The notes: generated by a model from the letters alone, not told the origin. Shown: positions 28,418 to 40,981, counted from the first letter of the stretch. The stretch: DNA of 64,000 nt from Patescibacteria group bacterium (GCA_038065315.1 JBBTRF010000001.1:33642-97641), one strand, 5' to 3'. Made by a program: numbers and translations.

Positions 28418-28564
28418 GAGGGTAATTCTAACAGGGGAGTGAGGCGAGCGATAGAATTGACATAAGGCATCATATCGTGATATGATACTTTTTGATGAAA
28501 TCGTTCTTTGACGATTGTCCTTGCTGCATTCGGTGGTTCAACAATTTCAAGCGGAAAATTCATT

Positions 28565-29179
28565 ATGACGACTGAGTTCACGACGGAGGTAATGACCCCT
28601 GATCAAGAGAAGCTACTGGTCGATGTTTTGTTGGGCATCCACGGTGGCCGCGAATTGGAAACTTTCTTTTTTGGAGATGCCGCAAAGGTGGGCAGTAGTG
28701 AACCAAAAAAACTTCCACTGCTAGAGGCCTTCTTTGAAATGTTACAGGCGCAAGAAACCAGATTTGGTTGGAATGCGTCATCGCCTGTGCCTCTTGCGAG
28801 TCGTATCCTGTTCCATTCTGTCGCCAAACACTTTGACCGCATGCGGGATAAGAAGCGGTTGAGACTCTACGTTGCTACGGGCATTAGTCTCGATTGGCAT
28901 CATCACATGGACGCAGTGTTTGCTTGCGGGCGTCGTTTCGTGGGGTTAGACATCACCACTGAGTGGCGAGTAGACAAGCTCGATCTGAAGGATGCAATAA
29001 TCGCTCGGTGCCAATTGCCGATCGTATTGATCCCGAGAAATGAGATTGCCGTTGTCGGAGGCTTCAACGCATTTAGCGAAAGGATCGCTGAAAGGATGAA
29101 GCACGAACTCTCGTTGTCGCCACCATCACCGCCCCAGAAGTGCTGGTATACGGCAAGAAGCTTGGCTGGGGCTTCCTAG
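28565..29179 (+). CDS. Hypothetical protein, paralog 1 of a tandem pair (unknown family)
   Basis: Shares ordered motifs with the downstream paralog: FFGD, RFGW/RFDW, LYVA.G...D..HH.D.AF, VG.DLT. Confidence 0.55.
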   Translation: MTTEFTTEVMTPDQEKLLVDVLLGIHGGRELETFFFGDAAKVGSSEPKKLPLLEAFFEMLQAQETRFGWNASSPVPLASRILFHSVAKHFDRMRDKKRLRLYVATGISLDWHHHMDAVFACGRRFVGLDITTEWRVDKLDLKDAIIARCQLPIVLIPRNEIAVVGGFNAFSERIAERMKHELSLSPPSPPQKCWYTARSLAGAS

Positions 29180-29210
29180 GAACCCAATCTTTCACCATGT
29201 ACCCCCCCCT

Positions 29211-29245: not shown

Positions 29246-29317
29246 GGCGCCTTGCTTTTCGGACATAAGAGAGTACGCTTATTCCCAGCGGTAAACCAAC
29301 AAACGAAAGGGCATCAA

Positions 29318-29932
29318 ATGGCGTGTCTGGATAGTTGTTTGACAAAAGAGGTCGTGGCTGAAATGGCAAGGATTCGGAGCGGGAGGAAATTCGAACAATT
29401 CCTCCTTGGAGACAAGGCGGTTGATTTGGGCGGTCCAATCCCGGACATTCCTTTTGAGCCGGCATGGCAAGAGGTGCTACGTGTGCAAGTGTCGCGCTTT
29501 GATTGGGATACCAAAAAACCGAAGACACTTGCTGGACAGGCGCTGTTTCAGGCGGTGGCTGCGGAGCTGCCAAACGAGGCTTGGCGCAACGCGTTGGAGC
29601 TGTATGTCGCCGTCGGCCTCGCTTTTGATCGCCGACATCACGCGGACTGTGCCTTCTTGGTGAATGGCATGAAACGTGTCGGTGTTGATCTCACCGTCGA
29701 GGAGTATCCATACAAACTCGCTAAAAAACGGCGCGCTGCGGAATCTTCGCCGATCCCAATGGTGATCCTCACTCGGGCGAAGATCACCAGAGAGACGGGT
29801 TTTGCCGAATACGGCAGGGAAATCGCCGCAAAGCTTCTCCACGGAACTTTCGCACATGAGCGCCTGCTTCGGCAGATTCGCGATCATGATTTCGAAACGG
29901 TTCGCCGATCCATGGCACGCCGCCGGCGGTGA
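29318..29932 (+). CDS. Hypothetical protein, paralog 2 of the tandem pair
   Basis: Collinear similarity to 28565-29179 (LELYVAVGLAFDRRHHADCAFLVNGMKRVGVDLTVEEY vs LRLYVATGISLDWHHHMDAVFACGRRFVGLDITTEW). Confidence 0.55.
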   Translation: MACLDSCLTKEVVAEMARIRSGRKFEQFLLGDKAVDLGGPIPDIPFEPAWQEVLRVQVSRFDWDTKKPKTLAGQALFQAVAAELPNEAWRNALELYVAVGLAFDRRHHADCAFLVNGMKRVGVDLTVEEYPYKLAKKRRAAESSPIPMVILTRAKITRETGFAEYGREIAAKLLHGTFAHERLLRQIRDHDFETVRRSMARRRR

Positions 29933-30367: not shown

Positions 30368-31711
30368 CTATTTTACCAACTTCGAAATCTCTTCGATCTT
30401 CACCGTCTTCTCCTCACCACTCTTCAGATTTTTGAGCTTGAACACGCCGGTCTTTATTTCCTCCTCGCCAATCACGATCACAAAAGGAATGTTTTGCTTG
30501 TCGGCATACTTGATCTGGTCACCAATTTTGCGGCCGGAATAGTCGACGGCCACGCTCACACCCGCCGCGCGGAGCTCCTGGGCGATCTCTTGCGCGCTGT
30601 CGTCGAGCGAGGCGGTGCCGGTGACGCCCATCACCGCCAAATACAAATCTGCACTTTTTGCGGCACCCGGGAGCAAGTTGCGAGATTCGAGAAGGTCGCG
30701 GAGCACGACATCGCCGGCACCAAAGCCGAAAGCAGCCACTTTTTCGGCGCCAAAAATATCAAGGAGGTCGTCGTAGCGACCGCCGCCGAAGACGGATCGG
30801 CGATTCTCTGGGCTGGTATCGAATACTTCAAATACGATGCCGGTGTAATAGTCGAAGCCGCGCATCAACGTCTGGCTGAAGCGGGCATTGGTGATACCGA
30901 GCAACTCGAGCTTTCCGAGCAGTGTTTGTATTTCGATGAAAGCCTCGTGTCCCTTGGCCGCGGCCCGCGCGCTTTCCGGCAGGTGCGAGATAAATTCGTC
31001 AAAATTCTGCGAATTGAGCAAGGCCAAAAACTTTTGAGTCTTCTCGTGATCGTGTTTGATTCCGATCAAAGCTTCAATCTTCGCAGCAAAATCGCTGGCC
31101 GGCATTTTCTCCTTGCGGTCGATGAGTTTGGAGACGGCGCGAGCGGTCTCCGCGTCGAGACCAAAGACGTCGCTGAGAATGTAGTTCATCACTTTGCGGC
31201 TGTTGATCAAAATTTCAAAATCAACATCCTTCAAGCCGAATTCGCGGAGCAGGGCAGAGGCGATCGAGATTACCTCGACTTCGGCTTGCACGGTTTTTAC
31301 GCCAAAAATATCGACGTTGAGCTGCCAGTGTTCGCGGAGACGGCCCTTCTGTGGCTGTTCGTATCGAAAAAGATTGGGGATCGAATACCAACGGAGCGGG
31401 AAGCTGAGCACTTTGCGCTCGGCGGCGATCATGCGGGCCACGGTCGGAGTCATTTCAGGGCGGAGAGTGACCTCGCGTTCGCCGCGGTCGATGAAAGTGT
31501 AGGTCTGCTCGTTGACGATCTCCTCGCCGGACTTGGCTTTGTAGAGCTCGGCCGGTTCGAGGACAGATGCGCCGTATTCAGTGTAGCCGAAACGCTCCAC
31601 TACGCGGCGCATGGTGCCGAAGATATGATTCTGCACCGCCATCTCGGCCGGATAGAAGTCGCGGACGCCCTTGTATGGGTCGGTGGACAGAGGTTTTTTC
31701 GGTGTAGACAT
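30368..31711 (-). CDS. hisS: Histidine--tRNA ligase
   Basis: Class II aaRS motifs; start MSTPKKPL at 31711 (the ORF-track extension to 31825 is unlikely). Confidence 0.9.
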   Translation of the reverse strand: MSTPKKPLSTDPYKGVRDFYPAEMAVQNHIFGTMRRVVERFGYTEYGASVLEPAELYKAKSGEEIVNEQTYTFIDRGEREVTLRPEMTPTVARMIAAERKVLSFPLRWYSIPNLFRYEQPQKGRLREHWQLNVDIFGVKTVQAEVEVISIASALLREFGLKDVDFEILINSRKVMNYILSDVFGLDAETARAVSKLIDRKEKMPASDFAAKIEALIGIKHDHEKTQKFLALLNSQNFDEFISHLPESARAAAKGHEAFIEIQTLLGKLELLGITNARFSQTLMRGFDYYTGIVFEVFDTSPENRRSVFGGGRYDDLLDIFGAEKVAAFGFGAGDVVLRDLLESRNLLPGAAKSADLYLAVMGVTGTASLDDSAQEIAQELRAAGVSVAVDYSGRKIGDQIKYADKQNIPFVIVIGEEEIKTGVFKLKNLKSGEEKTVKIEEISKLVK

Positions 31712-31868
31712 AGTGAGGATATTGTAGCAAATCAGCCTTATTTTACGAAGTTTTCTGGAGCATTGACACATAGTACTATAAGGTGATATAATACATCTCG
31801 AACAGGGATTGCGGCATGTCGCCAAAATCTAGACTGTTCTTTGGAAATCAGAACAAAAAGGAAACACC

Positions 31869-32696
31869 GTGAAAGGTACACCCTTGTCGGATGCAAATGA
31901 TGTCGCGCTCACAGTGCGCGCCATCGCTCTCGGTATGAAATTGGCACTCAATCTGCCGAAAGTGTTCACGCTCAGAGAGCTTGAGCATTACGAAGCCAAT
32001 CTTGATGAGCTTCCCGGGATTCTCCGGAACGGCTCTCGCTTTACCGCGACAGCCACCCAAGAAGGTGCGACTCAGACAGAACCTCCCCCGCGTCCCTCCT
32101 TCGCCTTTGCTGACACGAACGCCCTCAAGGCGATCGAGGAAGCCGAGGACTTTGCCGAGAAACACTTCGGCCATCGCCCCGACTTGCGCAAGCAGTTCAC
32201 GATGCCGAAGGTTTTGCCCTGGAAAATTGTGATCGCGGTCTATGATCCCGGCACTTTGACCCATCGCCAAGCAGTGGAGCAGGCCCTCAAGGCCCAGCCC
32301 AAGCTTAAGAGTGTGTATGAGGAGCGGGACCTGATGGACTACAAGGACGCGAAAGCTTCCGGCAAGCCCACTCTTCGCTTCGTTGAACGCTCGACGCAGC
32401 CGACACCGGACACGATGAATCTCACCGCAGACGAGATGGTGGCCACAGGGCGCGTCTTCCTCGATCTGCGCGGTTACATCATCGCCTTCGGCATGTATCA
32501 CAAGGTGACCGGCCACTTCCTCGACCCGAAGACGTGGACCCGGTTCCCAACATCGAGGCTCCCCGACGGCGGGGTGGCGAGTGGCTACTGGTTTCCGGGC
32601 TACTCGAAGGTCCGCTTCGACTGGGACTACGCCGGCTATCGCGGCTCCGACATCGGTGGTCGCGAGGCAGTCAATTGTGCCCTTGCAACTCCTTGA
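31869..32696 (+). CDS. DGR target (variable) protein; the C-terminal ~38 aa are encoded by the variable region
   Basis: GTG start with upstream AAAAAGGA; the C-terminal coding 116 nt matches the template repeat downstream except at TR adenines. Confidence 0.8.
   Translation: MKGTPLSDANDVALTVRAIALGMKLALNLPKVFTLRELEHYEANLDELPGILRNGSRFTATATQEGATQTEPPPRPSFAFADTNALKAIEEAEDFAEKHFGHRPDLRKQFTMPKVLPWKIVIAVYDPGTLTHRQAVEQALKAQPKLKSVYEERDLMDYKDAKASGKPTLRFVERSTQPTPDTMNLTADEMVATGRVFLDLRGYIIAFGMYHKVTGHFLDPKTWTRFPTSRLPDGGVASGYWFPGYSKVRFDWDYAGYRGSDIGGREAVNCALATP
32557..32672 (+). repeat. DGR variable region (VR)
   Basis: 116-nt match to 32982-33097; all 19 mismatches are at positions where the TR has A. Confidence 0.9.
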
Positions 32697-32981
32697 GCCC
32701 CTTGTTTCCTTCGACTTCTCCTCTTCACCCCTCGGCTTGCTATGGCAGGTCGGGGGTTTTTCTATGCGACAATGTGACAAAAGCAGCTCGTTTACGCTAT
32801 ACTTTTTGCAGGCTGTTAAATTGGTCCGATATTTTCAATCTGTGAAAAATGTCTGACAACAATTTGCCTAACAATAGAAACTGCTTGCTCACGTTTATAT
32901 TACGCATGCTCTGCCGCACGCATTCTCAACTCAGGAGTTTTTGCAAAAGGACTCCGGTGATACGGACGAATGTGGGCAATA

Positions 32982-33097
32982 AGGCTCCCCGACGGCAAGG
33001 TGGCGAATGGCAACTGGAATCCGGACAACTCGAAGGTCAACTTCAACTGGAACAACGCCGACAATCGCAACTCCAACATCGGTGGTCGCGAGGAAGT
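32982..33097 (+). repeat. DGR template repeat (TR)
   Basis: AAC-codon-rich (encodes NGNWNPDNSKVNFNWNNADNRNSN); 97/116 identity to VR, differing only at TR adenines. Confidence 0.9.
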
Positions 33098-33100
33098 TTC

Positions 33101-33484
33101 TCACAACAAAGAGCCACTAGGCTCTTTTTGTGTCTGGCTCGGCAGTGCGCCTGTTTGGATCGCATATGTCAGCCAGCCGTTGGTCATTTTCGAAATCTCG
33201 ATGAGTTGCTCGTAGAATCGAAAATACGTTTTCTCGGGGATGATTTGCAGTTCATGTTCAGTTCGGACAAGGTGTTTCAATATCTCGACTTGCAATCGCA
33301 GCTCCTCCAGCGCGCTTTGTTTTTCTTGCCGCGGCCGGAAAGCCGCTTCTACAGCGAGCGCAAGGCAGGCGAGAGACTGCTTTTCTATCTGTGCATGGAT
33401 ACCGAGTTTGTCTCGCTTCGATAATTTTTCTGCGCTACAATACAAGTCCTTATGCAACAGGCGAATAGCACGGATGATGGGCAA
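33101..33484 (-). CDS. avd: Avd-like accessory variability determinant (four-helix-bundle protein), probable TTG start
   Basis: LSKRDKLGIHAQIEKQSLACLALAVEAAFR and EISKMTNGWL align with the TIGR02436/Avd consensus (kyglTsQirRAavSIpsNIAEG ... mLngLi); the ORF-track start 33628 would overlap the RT N-terminus. Confidence 0.55.
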   Translation of the reverse strand: MPIIRAIRLLHKDLYCSAEKLSKRDKLGIHAQIEKQSLACLALAVEAAFRPRQEKQSALEELRLQVEILKHLVRTEHELQIIPEKTYFRFYEQLIEISKMTNGWLTYAIQTGALPSQTQKEPSGSLL

Positions 33485-33552
33485 AGTGGTATCACTGGGA
33501 GCGGTTTTGGTAGTAGCGGGGGGGGGGTATTCATGGTTTTGATTTTCGTGAT

Positions 33553-34590
33553 GTAATATTTGACGACATCGTATCGCTAAGAAGTCTTTTTTCGGCTTGG
33601 CGCCGGTTTTCAAAAGGGAAGCGGTCAAAGAAGGATGTTACCCTATTTGAGCTCCATTTGGAAGACAATCTCTTTTCTCTGCATCGTCGGCTGGTCTCGG
33701 GAGAGTGGCGTCCTGACCCGTATCAGGCTTTTTTGGTGCAGGATCCGAAGCTCCGACGAATCCATAAGGCGAGCGTCGGCGACAGGGTGCTGTATCAAGC
33801 TGTGTATCAGACGCTGTATCCGCTGTTCGACAAGCATTTTATCCATGATTCATACGCCTCTCGCGATCTGAAAGGTACGCATCGGGGTGTCGAGCGGTTT
33901 GGGGTGTTTGCGAAAAAAGTAAGTGCCAATCATTGCCATGCAGCTTTTGTGTTGAAGTGTGACGTGCGGAAATTTTTCGACTCCATTGATCACGACATTT
34001 TGTTGGAACTGCTGGGGCGGAAGCTTGGCGGCCGCGCGTCGGGCACTCCACACCTGCTCAGACTTCTCGAAAAGATCATCCGCTCTTTTGAGGCTTCACC
34101 TGGCAAAGGGCTGCCGCTCGGAAATGTCACGAGCCAGATTTTTGCGAATATCTACCTCAACAAACTCGATCAATTTGTGAAGCATTTCCTGCGCGCGCAA
34201 TACTATATACGATACTGCGACGATTTTGTATTGCTATCGTCGTCGCGCGAGGAGCTCGAGGGTTGGACTCGGGAAATCGGCCAATTTTTGCAGGAGCATC
34301 TGAAACTTTCATTGCATCCGAACAAGGTCACGATACGCAAGCTGCTCCAGGGAACGGATTTTCTCGGGTATGTGAGCTTGCCGCGCTATCGCGTGTTGCG
34401 GACGAAAACCAGAAACAGGATGTTCAAAAAGATCGTTGGACTCGCGGCTGAGGTGAAGAGTGGAAAGATTTCTGAGGATCGTTTTTGCAATTCACTCGCT
34501 TCCTATCTCGGCATGTTGAGACATTGCAAAAGTAAGAAGGTGTTGGCGGAACTCGGCACGCTACTTGGTACCGCTGACCAACCCCGATGA
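33553..34590 (+). CDS. DGR-type reverse transcriptase (probable GTG start upstream of ORF-track start 33658)
   Basis: LPLGNVTSQIFANIYLNKLD (DGR-specific SQ motif), YCDDFVL (YxDD); an upstream in-frame AWRRFSKGKRSKKDV matches the usual DGR RT N-terminus. Confidence 0.85.
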   Translation, partial: VIFDDIVSLRSLFSAWRRFSKGKRSKKDVTLFELHLEDNLFSLHRRLVSGEWRPDPYQAFLVQDPKLRRIHKASVGDRVLYQAVYQTLYPLFDKHFIHDSYASRDLKGTHRGVERFGVFAKKVSANHCHAAFVLKCDVRKFFDSIDHDILLELLGRKLGGRASGTPHLLRLLEKIIRSFEASPGKGLPLGNVTSQIFANIYLNKLDQFVKHFLRAQYYIRYCDDFVLLSSSREELEGWTREIGQFLQEHLKLSLHPNKVTIRKLLQGTDFLGYVSLPRYRVLRTKTRNRMFKKIVGLAAEVKSGKISEDRFCNSLASYLGMLRHCKSKKVLAELGTLLGTADQPR

Positions 34591-34857
34591 ACTAAAAAAG
34601 CTGGAACACAAGTTTCCAACTGTTTTTAGTTCTGGCGAGACTCCCGGTCCTCGCATGCGTGCCTCTCAGTGAAGAGAGCGCTGGGGAGAGATTTTCCAGT
34701 CTTCAGATGACCCTTCTTTACCCCTAAAGTATAAATAATCGGGGAGATTTTTGCAAGCTTAGAAAAGAAGATTGGCAAAAGAGAAATGCCGCGTCCTTTC
34801 AGGCGCGGCATTTGAATTTGTCGGGAGGTTTTTGAGTGACTCAGTTTGTGGCAATGA

Positions 34858-35310: not shown

Positions 35311-35413
35311 GTGCTATATTGGGTTGACGAACCGTTGTAGTCCGAGCAATTTTCTGAGCCAGCATCAACACTAAACATTTTTGGAGTTTTGTCAACAAAG
35401 TCGCAGAACGCAC

Positions 35414-36205
35414 ATGCCTTTCCTCATCAACAAAAAGCTCGGCGAAACGCCGCTCAAATGTCTCGAGCGTTTTTGCGCTGAAAGAGCTGCTGTGGGCAAG
35501 GTTGCTTTTGCCGATGCTCGCTCTATGCCATTTACCTACGCTGGCCGACTTGATCCAATGGCTGAAGGCCTGCTCGTGGTGCTCGCGGGCGAAGAGTGTA
35601 AACAGAAGGAAAAATATCTTGGTTTGGACAAAGTGTATGAGACAGAATTTTTGCTCGGAGTGGAGACGGATACGCATGATGTGTTGGGAATGGTGCAGGA
35701 TTCCGCGCTGGCCGCAACCTCTCAACAGTCCTCGAACACTTCTTTAGAACAATTTGAGACGGTCTTGAGAACATTTTTAGGTAAACGCATACAGGTGTAC
35801 CCGGCGTATTCTTCGAAGCCGCACAAGGGTCGGCCGTTGTTCGAGCTGGCGCGTGCTGGCGAGTTGCCAACTGAAGGTGAGATGCCGAGCAGGGAGGTCG
35901 AGATCTATCAGATCGAGGTGCTGGGTGAACGCATCGTGACAGCCGACGAGCTAGAGCAGCAGATCCTCGAAAGGATCGCGCTCGTGAAGGGCGATTTTCG
36001 GCAGCCGGAGATCGCAGTAAGGTGGCGGCAGTTTTTCCAGACGAATCATGATCGAAATTTTCAGGTGTTATCGCTCCGTATCCACTGTTCAAGCGGCACC
36101 TATATCCGCTCACTGGCGCAGGAAATAGGGAAACGTCTTGGCACTGGCGCCATCGCTTTTTCGATCAAACGCACGCAGGTGGGTGATTTTTTGCTATCGG
36201 CGTAG
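35414..36205 (+). CDS. truB: tRNA pseudouridine synthase TruB-family protein (paralog 1)
   Basis: GRLDPMAEGLLVVLAGEECK catalytic Asp motif; C-terminal SGTYIRSLAQEIG. Confidence 0.75.
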   Translation: MPFLINKKLGETPLKCLERFCAERAAVGKVAFADARSMPFTYAGRLDPMAEGLLVVLAGEECKQKEKYLGLDKVYETEFLLGVETDTHDVLGMVQDSALAATSQQSSNTSLEQFETVLRTFLGKRIQVYPAYSSKPHKGRPLFELARAGELPTEGEMPSREVEIYQIEVLGERIVTADELEQQILERIALVKGDFRQPEIAVRWRQFFQTNHDRNFQVLSLRIHCSSGTYIRSLAQEIGKRLGTGAIAFSIKRTQVGDFLLSA

Positions 36206-40204: not shown

Positions 40205-40321
40205 GAGGTAAGGTCCTTTCCAAGAAACTCAAATAGACAAAGAGCTGTTGAGTTTCCTTCTATTATTACATAGAATGCCAAGCATATGGGAGAAGCACCG
40301 AAAAATCCTCCGGCGGAGCTA

Positions 40322-40981
40322 ATGTTGGTCGACAAGCCAGCCGGTATCAGCTCTTTTGACGTGATTCGCCGATTGCAGAGAGAATCCGCCTACGCTGGCC
40401 GAAAAATGGGGCATGCCGGTACTCTCGATCCTTTGGCGACAGGGTTGATGATCATTGGTATTGATGGTGGGACGAAGCGTTTGGCGGAACTGCTCGGGCT
40501 GTCGAAAGTGTACGAAGCAGAATTCGTGGTCGGTATGCGGACCGATAGCGGAGATACGGACGGGCGGGTATTGGAGCAGTGGTCGACCGAGCAGGTGGCG
40601 ACATTTGGTGCTGGCATTACGGCAGAGCATATCGAGGCGGTGTTGGTTGGGATGAAGGGCGCGCTGCACTTGCCGGTACCGATCTACTCGGCGATTAAGC
40701 GCGGTGGGAAAAAGTTGTACGAATTGGCTCGCGCGGGGCAGACGGCAGAAGAGATCAAGCCACCGATGAAAGAAATGACGGTCGAGTCCGTACGATTTTT
40801 GGGATGGGAAAATACCGCCAATGGTCCGCGAGTGCGAGTGGAGCTCGGTGTGTCTAGTGGTACCTATATCCGCTCACTAGGAGAGGAGTTTGGCCGGCGC
40901 ATTGGCGCGCTGGTGACGATGAGTGCACTGCGGCGCACGAGTATTGGCGAATTTTCAGTGAGAGACGCGCGGAAAATCTAG
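40322..40981 (+). CDS. truB: tRNA pseudouridine synthase TruB-family protein (paralog 2)
   Basis: LVDKPAGISSFDV ... GHAGTLDPLATGLMII; C-terminal SGTYIRSLGEEFG. Confidence 0.8.
   Translation: MLVDKPAGISSFDVIRRLQRESAYAGRKMGHAGTLDPLATGLMIIGIDGGTKRLAELLGLSKVYEAEFVVGMRTDSGDTDGRVLEQWSTEQVATFGAGITAEHIEAVLVGMKGALHLPVPIYSAIKRGGKKLYELARAGQTAEEIKPPMKEMTVESVRFLGWENTANGPRVRVELGVSSGTYIRSLGEEFGRRIGALVTMSALRRTSIGEFSVRDARKI

Follow-up and report, generated by a model that had tools for sequence, protein, structure and literature searches.

To our knowledge, the means by which cells keep a retroelement in check when it rewrites one of their genes are largely an open question, which is raised in concrete form by a 64,000-nt stretch of DNA from a Patescibacteria group bacterium (GCA_038065315.1, JBBTRF010000001.1:33642-97641; hereafter the window). 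Positions 31869-34590 of the window hold a diversity-generating retroelement (DGR), which comprises a target gene with a variable repeat (VR) near its 3' end, a template repeat (TR), a gene for the accessory variability determinant (avd) and a gene for a reverse transcriptase (RT). An earlier note, made from the sequence alone, had described this element as complete. All the parts are indeed present, but in the allele captured here, which has a run of ten G residues (G10) where RT and avd overlap at their 5' ends, the RT has no in-frame start upstream of its N-terminal extension. We hold with high confidence that the locus is a chromosomal DGR of the candidate phyla radiation (CPR)/Patescibacteria type, with architecture B3, an RNA mechanism as proposed below and reading frames set by the poly-G tract. 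The DGR itself is one more chromosomal CPR element of a class catalogued since 2017-2018. It is the tract, a candidate phase-variation switch, and a helix between the TR leader and the TR 3' end that make the locus a more valuable lead.

The repeat pair carries the signature of adenine-specific mutagenic retrohoming. Pairwise alignment of the maximal, 117-nt pair (Table 1) gives 20 mismatches, all 20 of them at TR adenines, and the chance of such an outcome with 35 adenine sites among 117 positions is 1.9e-13. At the mismatched sites the VR carries G (12 times), T (6) or C (2), while 15 of the 35 TR adenines are kept. Most of the changes (18 of 20) affect codon position 1 or 2, chiefly within AAC or AAT codons, and the TR read in the VR frame gives the Asn-rich peptide NGNWNPDNSKVNFNWNNADNRNSN. 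The earlier note had reported the same base classes, the same 15 unchanged adenines, the restriction to TR adenines and an Asn-rich TR peptide, all of which are borne out on recount; its 19 mismatches in a 116-nt repeat are also correct (19/19 at TR adenines, VR 32556-32671 versus TR 32982-33097). Its VR coordinates were shifted by 1 nt, since the true TR-VR offset is 426 nt, not 425, and 32557-32672 laid against 32982-33097 is out of register, with 84 mismatches. The VR ends 25 nt before the end of the target open reading frame (ORF). Near its 3' end it shares with the TR a GC-rich segment of 14 nt; the next base is C in the VR and A in the TR in all three syntenic lineages described below, and the sequence beyond this core differs between the two repeats. 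By analogy with the elements IMH (short for initiation of mutagenic homing) and IMH* described in PMC5758913, the segment may be an IMH-like core. Both strands of the 64-kb window were scanned for a further VR copy, and none was found.

The RT ORF carries LGNVTSQIFANIYL and YCDD, and it clusters with hundreds of Patescibacterial RTs. Its library matches include RVT_1 (E 1e-22) and the phage RT family phrog_1423 of the PHROGs (E 3e-106). If it belonged instead to a non-DGR class (retron, group II intron or Abi/DRT), the repeat would be an ordinary duplication of a gene fragment. Matches to generic RT models (RVT_1, PADLOC 'RT', group II at 136 bits) and the Joint Genome Institute label 'retron-type reverse transcriptase' on some RT homologues would fit such a class; however, every non-DGR NCBIfam model stays far under its curated cut-off, whether for group II RTs (136 vs 300 bits), the St85 retron (60 vs 235 bits), or other retron, Drt and Abi families. 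In the PDB the best match is to chain 8ub7_A (E 2.4e-37; group II RTs reach 1e-19), whose sequence and residue numbers (K29, Q187, D215/D216) mark it as the Bordetella phage RT, bRT, and bRT is thus ahead of other solved relatives by 17 orders of magnitude. The alignment with bRT begins at bRT residue 8, and the K29-equivalent GK, TSQ and YxDD are conserved. An [I/L]GxxxSQ motif in the RT, adenine-specific mismatches (p ~1e-13) and an adjoining avd gene count equally against a plain duplication, which is refuted on all these grounds and retains next to no probability. The motifs LGNVTSQ and YCDD, which had led to a DGR-type assignment in the first place, are present, and the profile comparison supports placing the RT in the DGR class, distinct from group II, retron and Abi RTs.

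Avd is matched over its full length by three library models, namely NCBIfam DivGenRetAVD (E 1e-13), 'Avd protein of DGR' of the PHROGs (E 4e-15) and bAvd of Pfam (E 3e-8). Where curated cut-offs exist, the scores stay under them: NF033474 (DivGenRetAVD) is covered at positions 1-103 of 104 with 51 bits, below its 80-bit cut-off, and bAvd falls below its gathering score. A search of the PDB by sequence gave nothing relevant for Avd. The Avd-like ORF proposed between TR and RT is upheld by these matches, with the addition that it lies on the minus strand, and the same head-to-head arrangement of avd (-) and RT (+) is found in about 70 related loci.

Several observations place the element in the chromosome of its host, a groundwater Patescibacterium that has not been cultured. 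A 314-kb contig from Hainich groundwater matches the window at 99.99% identity. The flanks are formed by hisS (30368-31711, - strand), a half-size EamA-like ORF, truB, and genes for an RRM protein, DoxX and typA. Of the neighbours named previously, hisS stands, and the supposed drug/metabolite transporter (DMT) is the half-size EamA-like ORF, which scores under the Pfam cut-off. The order hisS-target-TR-avd-RT-truB recurs in two further lineages, whose RTs are 89% and 80% identical to that of the window, and the closest RTs on viral contigs are at most 46% identical. Adenine-only VR/TR pairs in this layout occur in 59 of 67 testable loci (of 80 species-level loci, all in metagenome-assembled genomes of Patescibacteria type). 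Because of this synteny, the Patescibacteria-type loci, the low identity of viral RTs and the published B3 layout, the locus is assigned to a known class of chromosomal DGRs, and the earlier view of a chromosomal rather than a phage element holds.

The relatives also record the activity of the element. The syntenic loci L003 and L005 have VR/TR pairs with 27 and 18 mismatches, respectively, again at adenines only. The TRs of L003, L004 and L005 are nearly identical, and the non-adenine TR substitutions are shared by each cognate VR. Because these substitutions recur in the element's own VR, the VRs appear, on direct evidence of concerted change, to have been re-templated since the lineages split. 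In a second lineage, the loci L098 and L103 (98.9% identical) differ at five VR positions (684-752 in L103 coordinates), all of them TR-adenine sites, which points to recent diversification in a sister DGR of the clade. In the same lineage, the target gene of L103 5' of the VR (474-517) differs from L098 and L101 by at least 12 clustered substitutions, seen on two contigs and not adenine-specific; a recombination tract is one possibility.

The unexpected feature of the locus lies where RT and avd meet. The 5' ends of the two genes overlap head-to-head across the G tract (C10 on the avd strand), the longest homopolymer of the window, so that tract length sets both the RT and the avd frame. The conserved N-terminus of the RT begins 2 codons past the tract, without a start codon in between. 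With G10, the RT frame contains no ATG, GTG or TTG from the stop codons at 33511-33516 to a TTG at 33658, yet the conserved N-terminal extension, which aligns with bRT residues 8-30 and contains the K29 equivalent, is encoded in this frame 5' of 33658. The RT call in NCBI, MEK7644743.1 (310 aa, from 33658; P0282, on two contigs on record in NCBI/ENA), is without this extension. An ATG at 33452 is in the RT frame with G8 or G11 and an ATG at 33476 with G9; for avd, a length of 8 or 11 is required to bring its conserved ATG (33535-33533) into frame. Both genes are thus ATG-started with G8 or G11, RT alone with G9, and neither with G10. Other assemblies of the same population carry these alternative lengths: G9 in L001, L002 and L086, with an RT of 371 aa from ATG 33476 (P0001), and G11 in L094, with an RT of 379 aa from ATG 33452 (P0283). 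This polymorphism is evidence at the level of assemblies, which are otherwise alike, with one substitution and no other indel in 21 kb.

The tract is also a property of the clade. Of 81 species-level loci, about 69 have a run of 8-12 G residues (one of 13) at the avd/RT junction, their genomes ranging in GC content from 32% to 53%, and comparable G or C runs (at least 8) occur elsewhere about four times in 709 kb. Tract lengths across loci show no 3-nt periodicity (8 in seven loci, 9 in 24, 10 in 24, 11 in 12 and 12 in three). In 18 loci the RT ORF and the avd ORF both span the tract in frame; in 18 of 65 there is no in-frame RT start upstream of the conserved N-terminus, and in 47 of 65 the RT is in frame with an upstream start. 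Relatives without a tract have CAT...ATG starts a few bases apart, and 40 of 41 viral DGR RTs are without one. In the second lineage, G9 contigs (two) have an ATG-started RT and an Avd call of 120 aa, and G10 contigs (at least six, from independent assemblies or projects) have a GTG-started RT and an Avd call of 73 aa. Other RT clusters at 90% identity likewise contain members that differ solely in the reading frame upstream of 'GGG'. One member of the P0068 cluster, P0299, reads MNNKGCAGGGG-VIVVIF-DVINIR, not ...AGGG-RHSCNFY-DVINIR; it looks like a +1 tract change followed by a compensating shift about 20 nt downstream. Two other roles for the tract were considered and set aside. A start at ATT 33529, with the G run as its Shine-Dalgarno sequence, fails in relatives such as L008, which have no near-cognate start there, and a plain intergenic spacer between divergent starts is contradicted by the near absence of start codons between the tract and the RT N-terminus.

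Differences in the length of a homopolymer may simply be errors of sequencing or assembly, in which case the true allele would be G9, the RT would be intact, and the tract would encode Gly3 in RT and Pro3 in Avd with no role in regulation. The assemblies have coverage of about 4-9x, G9 is found in three of the five, and long G runs are hard to sequence; one 12.5-kb contig (L087, ENA Hain_H52_01um_R1) terminates within the tract, at window 33520, where the assembler was unable to traverse it in that sample. Yet three consensus lengths are seen in assemblies with no other indel, and a C8 tract at 29202-29209 is constant in all four assemblies examined. Nor would error readily produce G10 in at least six contigs of independent projects and G9 in two in the second lineage, or 65 species-level loci with lengths of 8-12 that ignore the triplet frame, 18 of them lacking an in-frame RT start. 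A protein requirement for Gly3/Pro3 would not preserve a pure G run at 32% GC. The loci include GW2011- and RIFCSP-named contigs, from projects which we take to be older than two-colour sequencing chemistry. We therefore regard error as an unlikely explanation of the length differences, albeit one with some remaining weight.

The G10 allele may also be read as a pseudogene in a decaying, frameshifted DGR whose target is no longer diversified. A full-length RT lacks a canonical start in it, no assembly of the window population shows any change in the VR, and L003 and L004 are likewise G10 and out of frame. Against decay, what remains of the RT ORF is undamaged and matches the in-frame alleles P0001 and P0283 at 100% identity; TR, leader, helix and hairpin are strongly conserved; the VRs of sister lineages mirror non-adenine changes of their TRs; and the tract is kept across the clade, which is not expected of a one-off lesion. 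A remnant is accordingly improbable, and most likely the window captures the phase-OFF allele of a functional element.

A further alternative retains a regulatory role for the tract and denies its heritability. Programmed slippage of RNA polymerase or ribosome on the G/C run would yield some in-frame RT and Avd at any length, making the tract an attenuator and not a heritable switch. Homopolymer-dependent transcriptional slippage is established in bacteria, and tract lengths in many loci seem unconstrained by frame. It is best documented, however, for A/T runs, and an in-frame RT start in 47 of 65 loci exceeds the one third or so expected by chance, which suggests that the genomic frame matters. 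Slippage is therefore a doubtful explanation, and the reading we prefer is that tract length would control expression of RT and Avd. In that case, because G10 puts neither the RT nor the avd ATG in frame, the window would carry an OFF allele, with the ON alleles G9 and G11 coexisting in the same aquifer population.

The TR and its surroundings appear to form a small transcription unit of their own. Consensus scans found a promoter-like site 5' of the TR leader, whose -10 element is invariant and whose -35 element is nearly so in L003 and L005. The spacer from VR to TR is 92% identical in the three lineages, in which the target proteins are only 63-72% identical, and the leader blocks GATAACAATTTGC, AGAAACTGCYTG and CGGTGATACGGACGAA are kept across 35 loci. 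Directly 3' of every TR stands the motif GAAGTTTCTC, followed by a strong hairpin. Part of this motif, AGUUUCU, is the reverse complement of a leader segment about 105 nt upstream of the TR, and the helix so formed is supported by covariation. Among 44 loci, compensatory changes occur at four of the seven core pairs (one of them, for instance, is C-G in 36 and U-A in six, with none unpaired), helix cells are paired in 90.5% of cases versus at most 55% when the partner is slid, and the covariation score is 0.163 versus 0.101 +/- 0.013 for shuffled alignments, with 0 of 500 shuffles as high. An extra wobble pair (13-21) that would have lengthened the helix was rejected, as it is unpaired in 27 of 42 sequences. 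The conserved G at 32883 faces TR A33094, the sole position with a fixed VR C in all lineages, and the last demonstrably mutable TR adenine is 33091.

The core of the hairpin starts ten bases after the TR. A hairpin is found at this place in 36 loci although its stem sequence varies from locus to locus, with a mean z of -4.5 and 34 of 36 values below -2. Stem-loops that bind Avd just downstream of the TR have been described in 207 DGRs, including CPR elements (bioRxiv 10.1101/2023.10.23.563531), and the present hairpin is, by analogy, a candidate for such a stem-loop, for a bidirectional terminator of TR RNA (+) and avd (-), or for both. With the post-TR stem-loop and the duplex of the TR 3' end with a distal segment, both RNA features of the BPP-1 type are present. 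An Rfam scan of the window returned a tRNA-Asn only, with no DGR match. In the window lineage, the last eight codons of avd (KEPSGSLL) and its TGA stop lie inside the post-TR hairpin and the conserved opposite-strand motif GAAGTTTCTCA (33101-33127), so one DNA stretch is at once the 3' end of avd, the hairpin and the 3' flank of the TR.

Taken together, these elements suggest the following mechanism. An RNA of about 325 nt, composed of leader, 117-nt TR and 3' stem-loop, would be transcribed from its own promoter (start near 32810) to the hairpin and U-run (end near 33135). The 7-bp helix 32876-32882/33095-33101 would loop out the TR and bring the first templated nucleotides beside G 32883, in the region of the putative priming site. 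A complex of RT and Avd would then reverse-transcribe the TR, misincorporating opposite adenines, and the cDNA would replace the VR in the last 47 codons of the 275-aa target, where the variable residues would fall in a ligand-binding domain of C-type-lectin fold. Supply of the two proteins would depend on the head-to-head overlap of their 5' ends over the G tract, whose length would set both frames. The leader/TR 3'-end helix would also define the likely minimal RNA, of about 325 nt, for in vitro reconstitution of a CPR DGR.

A number of points weigh against this account or limit it. All assemblies share one VR sequence, and the cluster of the target protein consists of one member, found on six contigs; ongoing diversification in the window population is thus unsupported, and current activity unproven, at the consensus level. 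With the low coverage given above, the homopolymer call of any one assembly may be wrong. The switch may be leaky or specific to one gene, through TTG 33484 in avd and the GTG start of RT in the second lineage. Truncated RT calls were discarded as evidence of OFF alleles because L096, a G9 locus, bears one (P0297), and such calls can be artefacts of antisense overlap. The promoter and terminator sites are pattern matches only. In BPP-1, cDNA synthesis requires about 140 nt on the downstream side of the TR (bioRxiv 10.1101/2023.10.23.563531); an RNA ending at the hairpin would imply that BPP-1-like downstream elements lie elsewhere, or else that the hairpin is read through. In view of these points, we consider the boldest form of the proposal, a selected, hypermutable G8-G12 switch that gates retrohoming across the clade by frameshifting RT and Avd, together with an independent and perhaps permuted, retron-like TR RNA, to be evenly poised between true and false.

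If it is true, the mutator element would itself be gated by a second, simpler mutational device. The tract in the first codons of RT and Avd offers a concrete hypothesis of regulation, testable with existing metagenomic reads. The literature searched yielded no paper that connects DGRs with homopolymer tracts or with phase variation, and neither a poly-G tract at the avd/RT junction nor a helix of leader and TR 3' end was found mentioned there or in PMC5758913, in which the word 'homopolymer' is absent. There is also a practical consequence. Gene callers mis-start or shorten RT and avd genes of this kind, the 310-aa NCBI call being one example, so a survey restricted to intact ORFs may miscount 'functional' CPR DGRs.

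The target protein has no match in Pfam, NCBIfam, PHROGs or PADLOC, or by sequence in the PDB. A word-indexed search found 13 relatives, and an exhaustive profile search found 204 cluster representatives, all of 200-280 aa. An AlphaFold2 model built on an alignment of 87 homologues taken from the exhaustive search reached a pLDDT (predicted local distance difference test) of 93.5, versus an unusable 49 with the 13-sequence alignment. A Foldseek search of the model gave no significant result by itself. The C-terminus with the VR is predicted to adopt a C-type-lectin fold, and a family of about 200 clusters with no annotation thereby gains a confident fold assignment, at the level of a model. 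The promoter of the target gene lies 77 nt 5' of its start codon, and a GC-rich inverted repeat 3' of the VR, kept in L003 and L005, may terminate the target gene, act as a DGR target-recognition hairpin, or do both. Elsewhere, a target homologue (P0132, 58% identical) lies between prfB and ftsE/ftsX (L088 3001-5967, and L089-L093). Its strand also carries an Avd-like gene (PF05635) 1.8 kb downstream, and no RT is present within 3 kb; the homologue is possibly a DGR target that is remote or orphaned. This RT-less locus yielded no tract information.

Table 1. Features of the DGR locus and its immediate surroundings, in window coordinates.
Feature	Position	Strand	Remarks
Sigma-70-like promoter of target gene	31763..31792	+	TTGACA, 18-nt spacer, TATAAT, TG before -10; 12/12 consensus
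Target (variable protein) gene, 275 aa	31869..32696	+	helical N-terminal part; predicted C-terminal C-type-lectin-fold domain with VR
Variable repeat (VR)	32555..32671	+	117-nt ungapped match to TR; all mismatches at TR adenines
14-nt GC-rich segment CGGTGGTCGCGAGG, putative IMH-like core, at VR 3' end	32654..32667	+	same in VR and TR
GC-rich inverted repeat and T-run, 57 nt 3' of VR	32729..32756	+	12-bp stem with 8 GC pairs, then TTTTTC
Promoter-like site 5' of TR leader	32774..32803	+	GTGACA, 18-nt spacer, TATACT; 10/12 consensus
Non-coding leader of TR RNA	32853..32980	+	nearly invariant in three lineages
Long-range helix, 5' strand AGAAACU	32876..32882	+	pairs with 33095-33101; conserved G at 32883 next
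Template repeat (TR), 35 adenines, Asn-rich reading in VR frame	32981..33097	+	
Long-range helix, 3' strand AGUUUCU	33095..33101	+	straddles TR 3' boundary; within conserved GAAGTTTCTC motif
avd (accessory variability determinant)	33101..33535	-	conserved body 33101-33484, 127 aa from TTG 33484
Strong hairpin, core 33108-33127 (AAAGAGCC-ACTA-GGCTCTTT), between A-run and T-run	33103..33132	.	terminator scan
DGR reverse transcriptase	33452..34590	+	conserved frame open from 33517 to stop at 34590
Poly-G tract G10 (C10 on avd strand) in overlapping RT/avd 5' ends	33518..33527	.	longest homopolymer of the window
Terminator-like hairpin between RT stop and convergent EamA-like gene	34599..34621	-	terminator scan

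Two observations concern the wider neighbourhood. The C8 tract used above for comparison separates two paralogous ORFs (28508-29179 and 29252-29932, both +), whose function is unassigned and which are called as two 204-aa genes on L001. Downstream of the DGR, two genes with a TruB_N domain lie within 5 kb of each other (35381-36205 and ~40321-40980, the latter at 16848-17507 on L001).

Among known systems, the closest are the CPR DGRs with the order TR-(avd)-RT, termed architecture B3, to which 90% of CPR DGRs belong (Wu et al. 2018, PMC5758913). They share with the present element the same order and orientation (target with 3' VR, TR, reverse-strand avd, RT), with a host here that is a groundwater Patescibacterium and a target likewise without a recognisable sequence family, and there is no difference in layout. 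The DGR of phage BPP-1 (mtd-VR, avd, TR, brt) resembles it in adenine-specific transfer from TR to VR, in an accessory protein of the pentameric Avd family, in an RT with N-terminal extension, TSQ and YxDD (E 2e-37), in a GC-rich, 14-nt putative IMH-like core, and in a stem-loop just 3' of the TR with a helix that takes in the 3' end of the TR, by the initiation site. In BPP-1, the TR 3' end is paired by the initiation site in a template:primer duplex, and a G is required after the priming nucleotide (bioRxiv 10.1101/2023.10.23.563531). The leader-TR helix may mirror this duplex, although its counterpart in BPP-1 could be either the template:primer duplex or the cPRT stop duplex. The two systems differ in that the window element is chromosomal, its avd is inverted with a 5' end overlapping that of RT, and its TR seemingly has its own promoter and terminator. 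Furthermore, the partner of the TR 3' end is a strand about 105 nt upstream of the TR and not one in a downstream spacer, the TR is only about 35 nt from the U-run, and the 5' ends of RT and avd contain a poly-G tract.

In retrons, the priming nucleotide lies upstream of the template. The likeness of the TR RNA to retron ncRNA (non-coding RNA; msr-msd) is one of topology only, in that the 3' end of the template region is base-paired to a 5' strand, which a conserved G follows. By contrast, the RT here is not of the retron type, the product would serve adenine-mutagenic homing, and 2'-OH priming is putative. For the tract, a precedent of divergent genes under one repeat is hifA/hifB, a pair controlled in this way. 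The contingency loci of Neisseria, Campylobacter and Haemophilus (with poly-G in lgt genes, PMC2192423) likewise have a G or C run of at least 8 in their first codons. What the tract would control in the window is the RT and accessory protein of a mutagenic retroelement instead of surface structures, in a Patescibacterium host, and reversible switching is a candidate function by analogy. As in contingency loci, the length of the run differs in otherwise identical genomes and shifts the frame of the ORF, here with one tract for two divergent genes.

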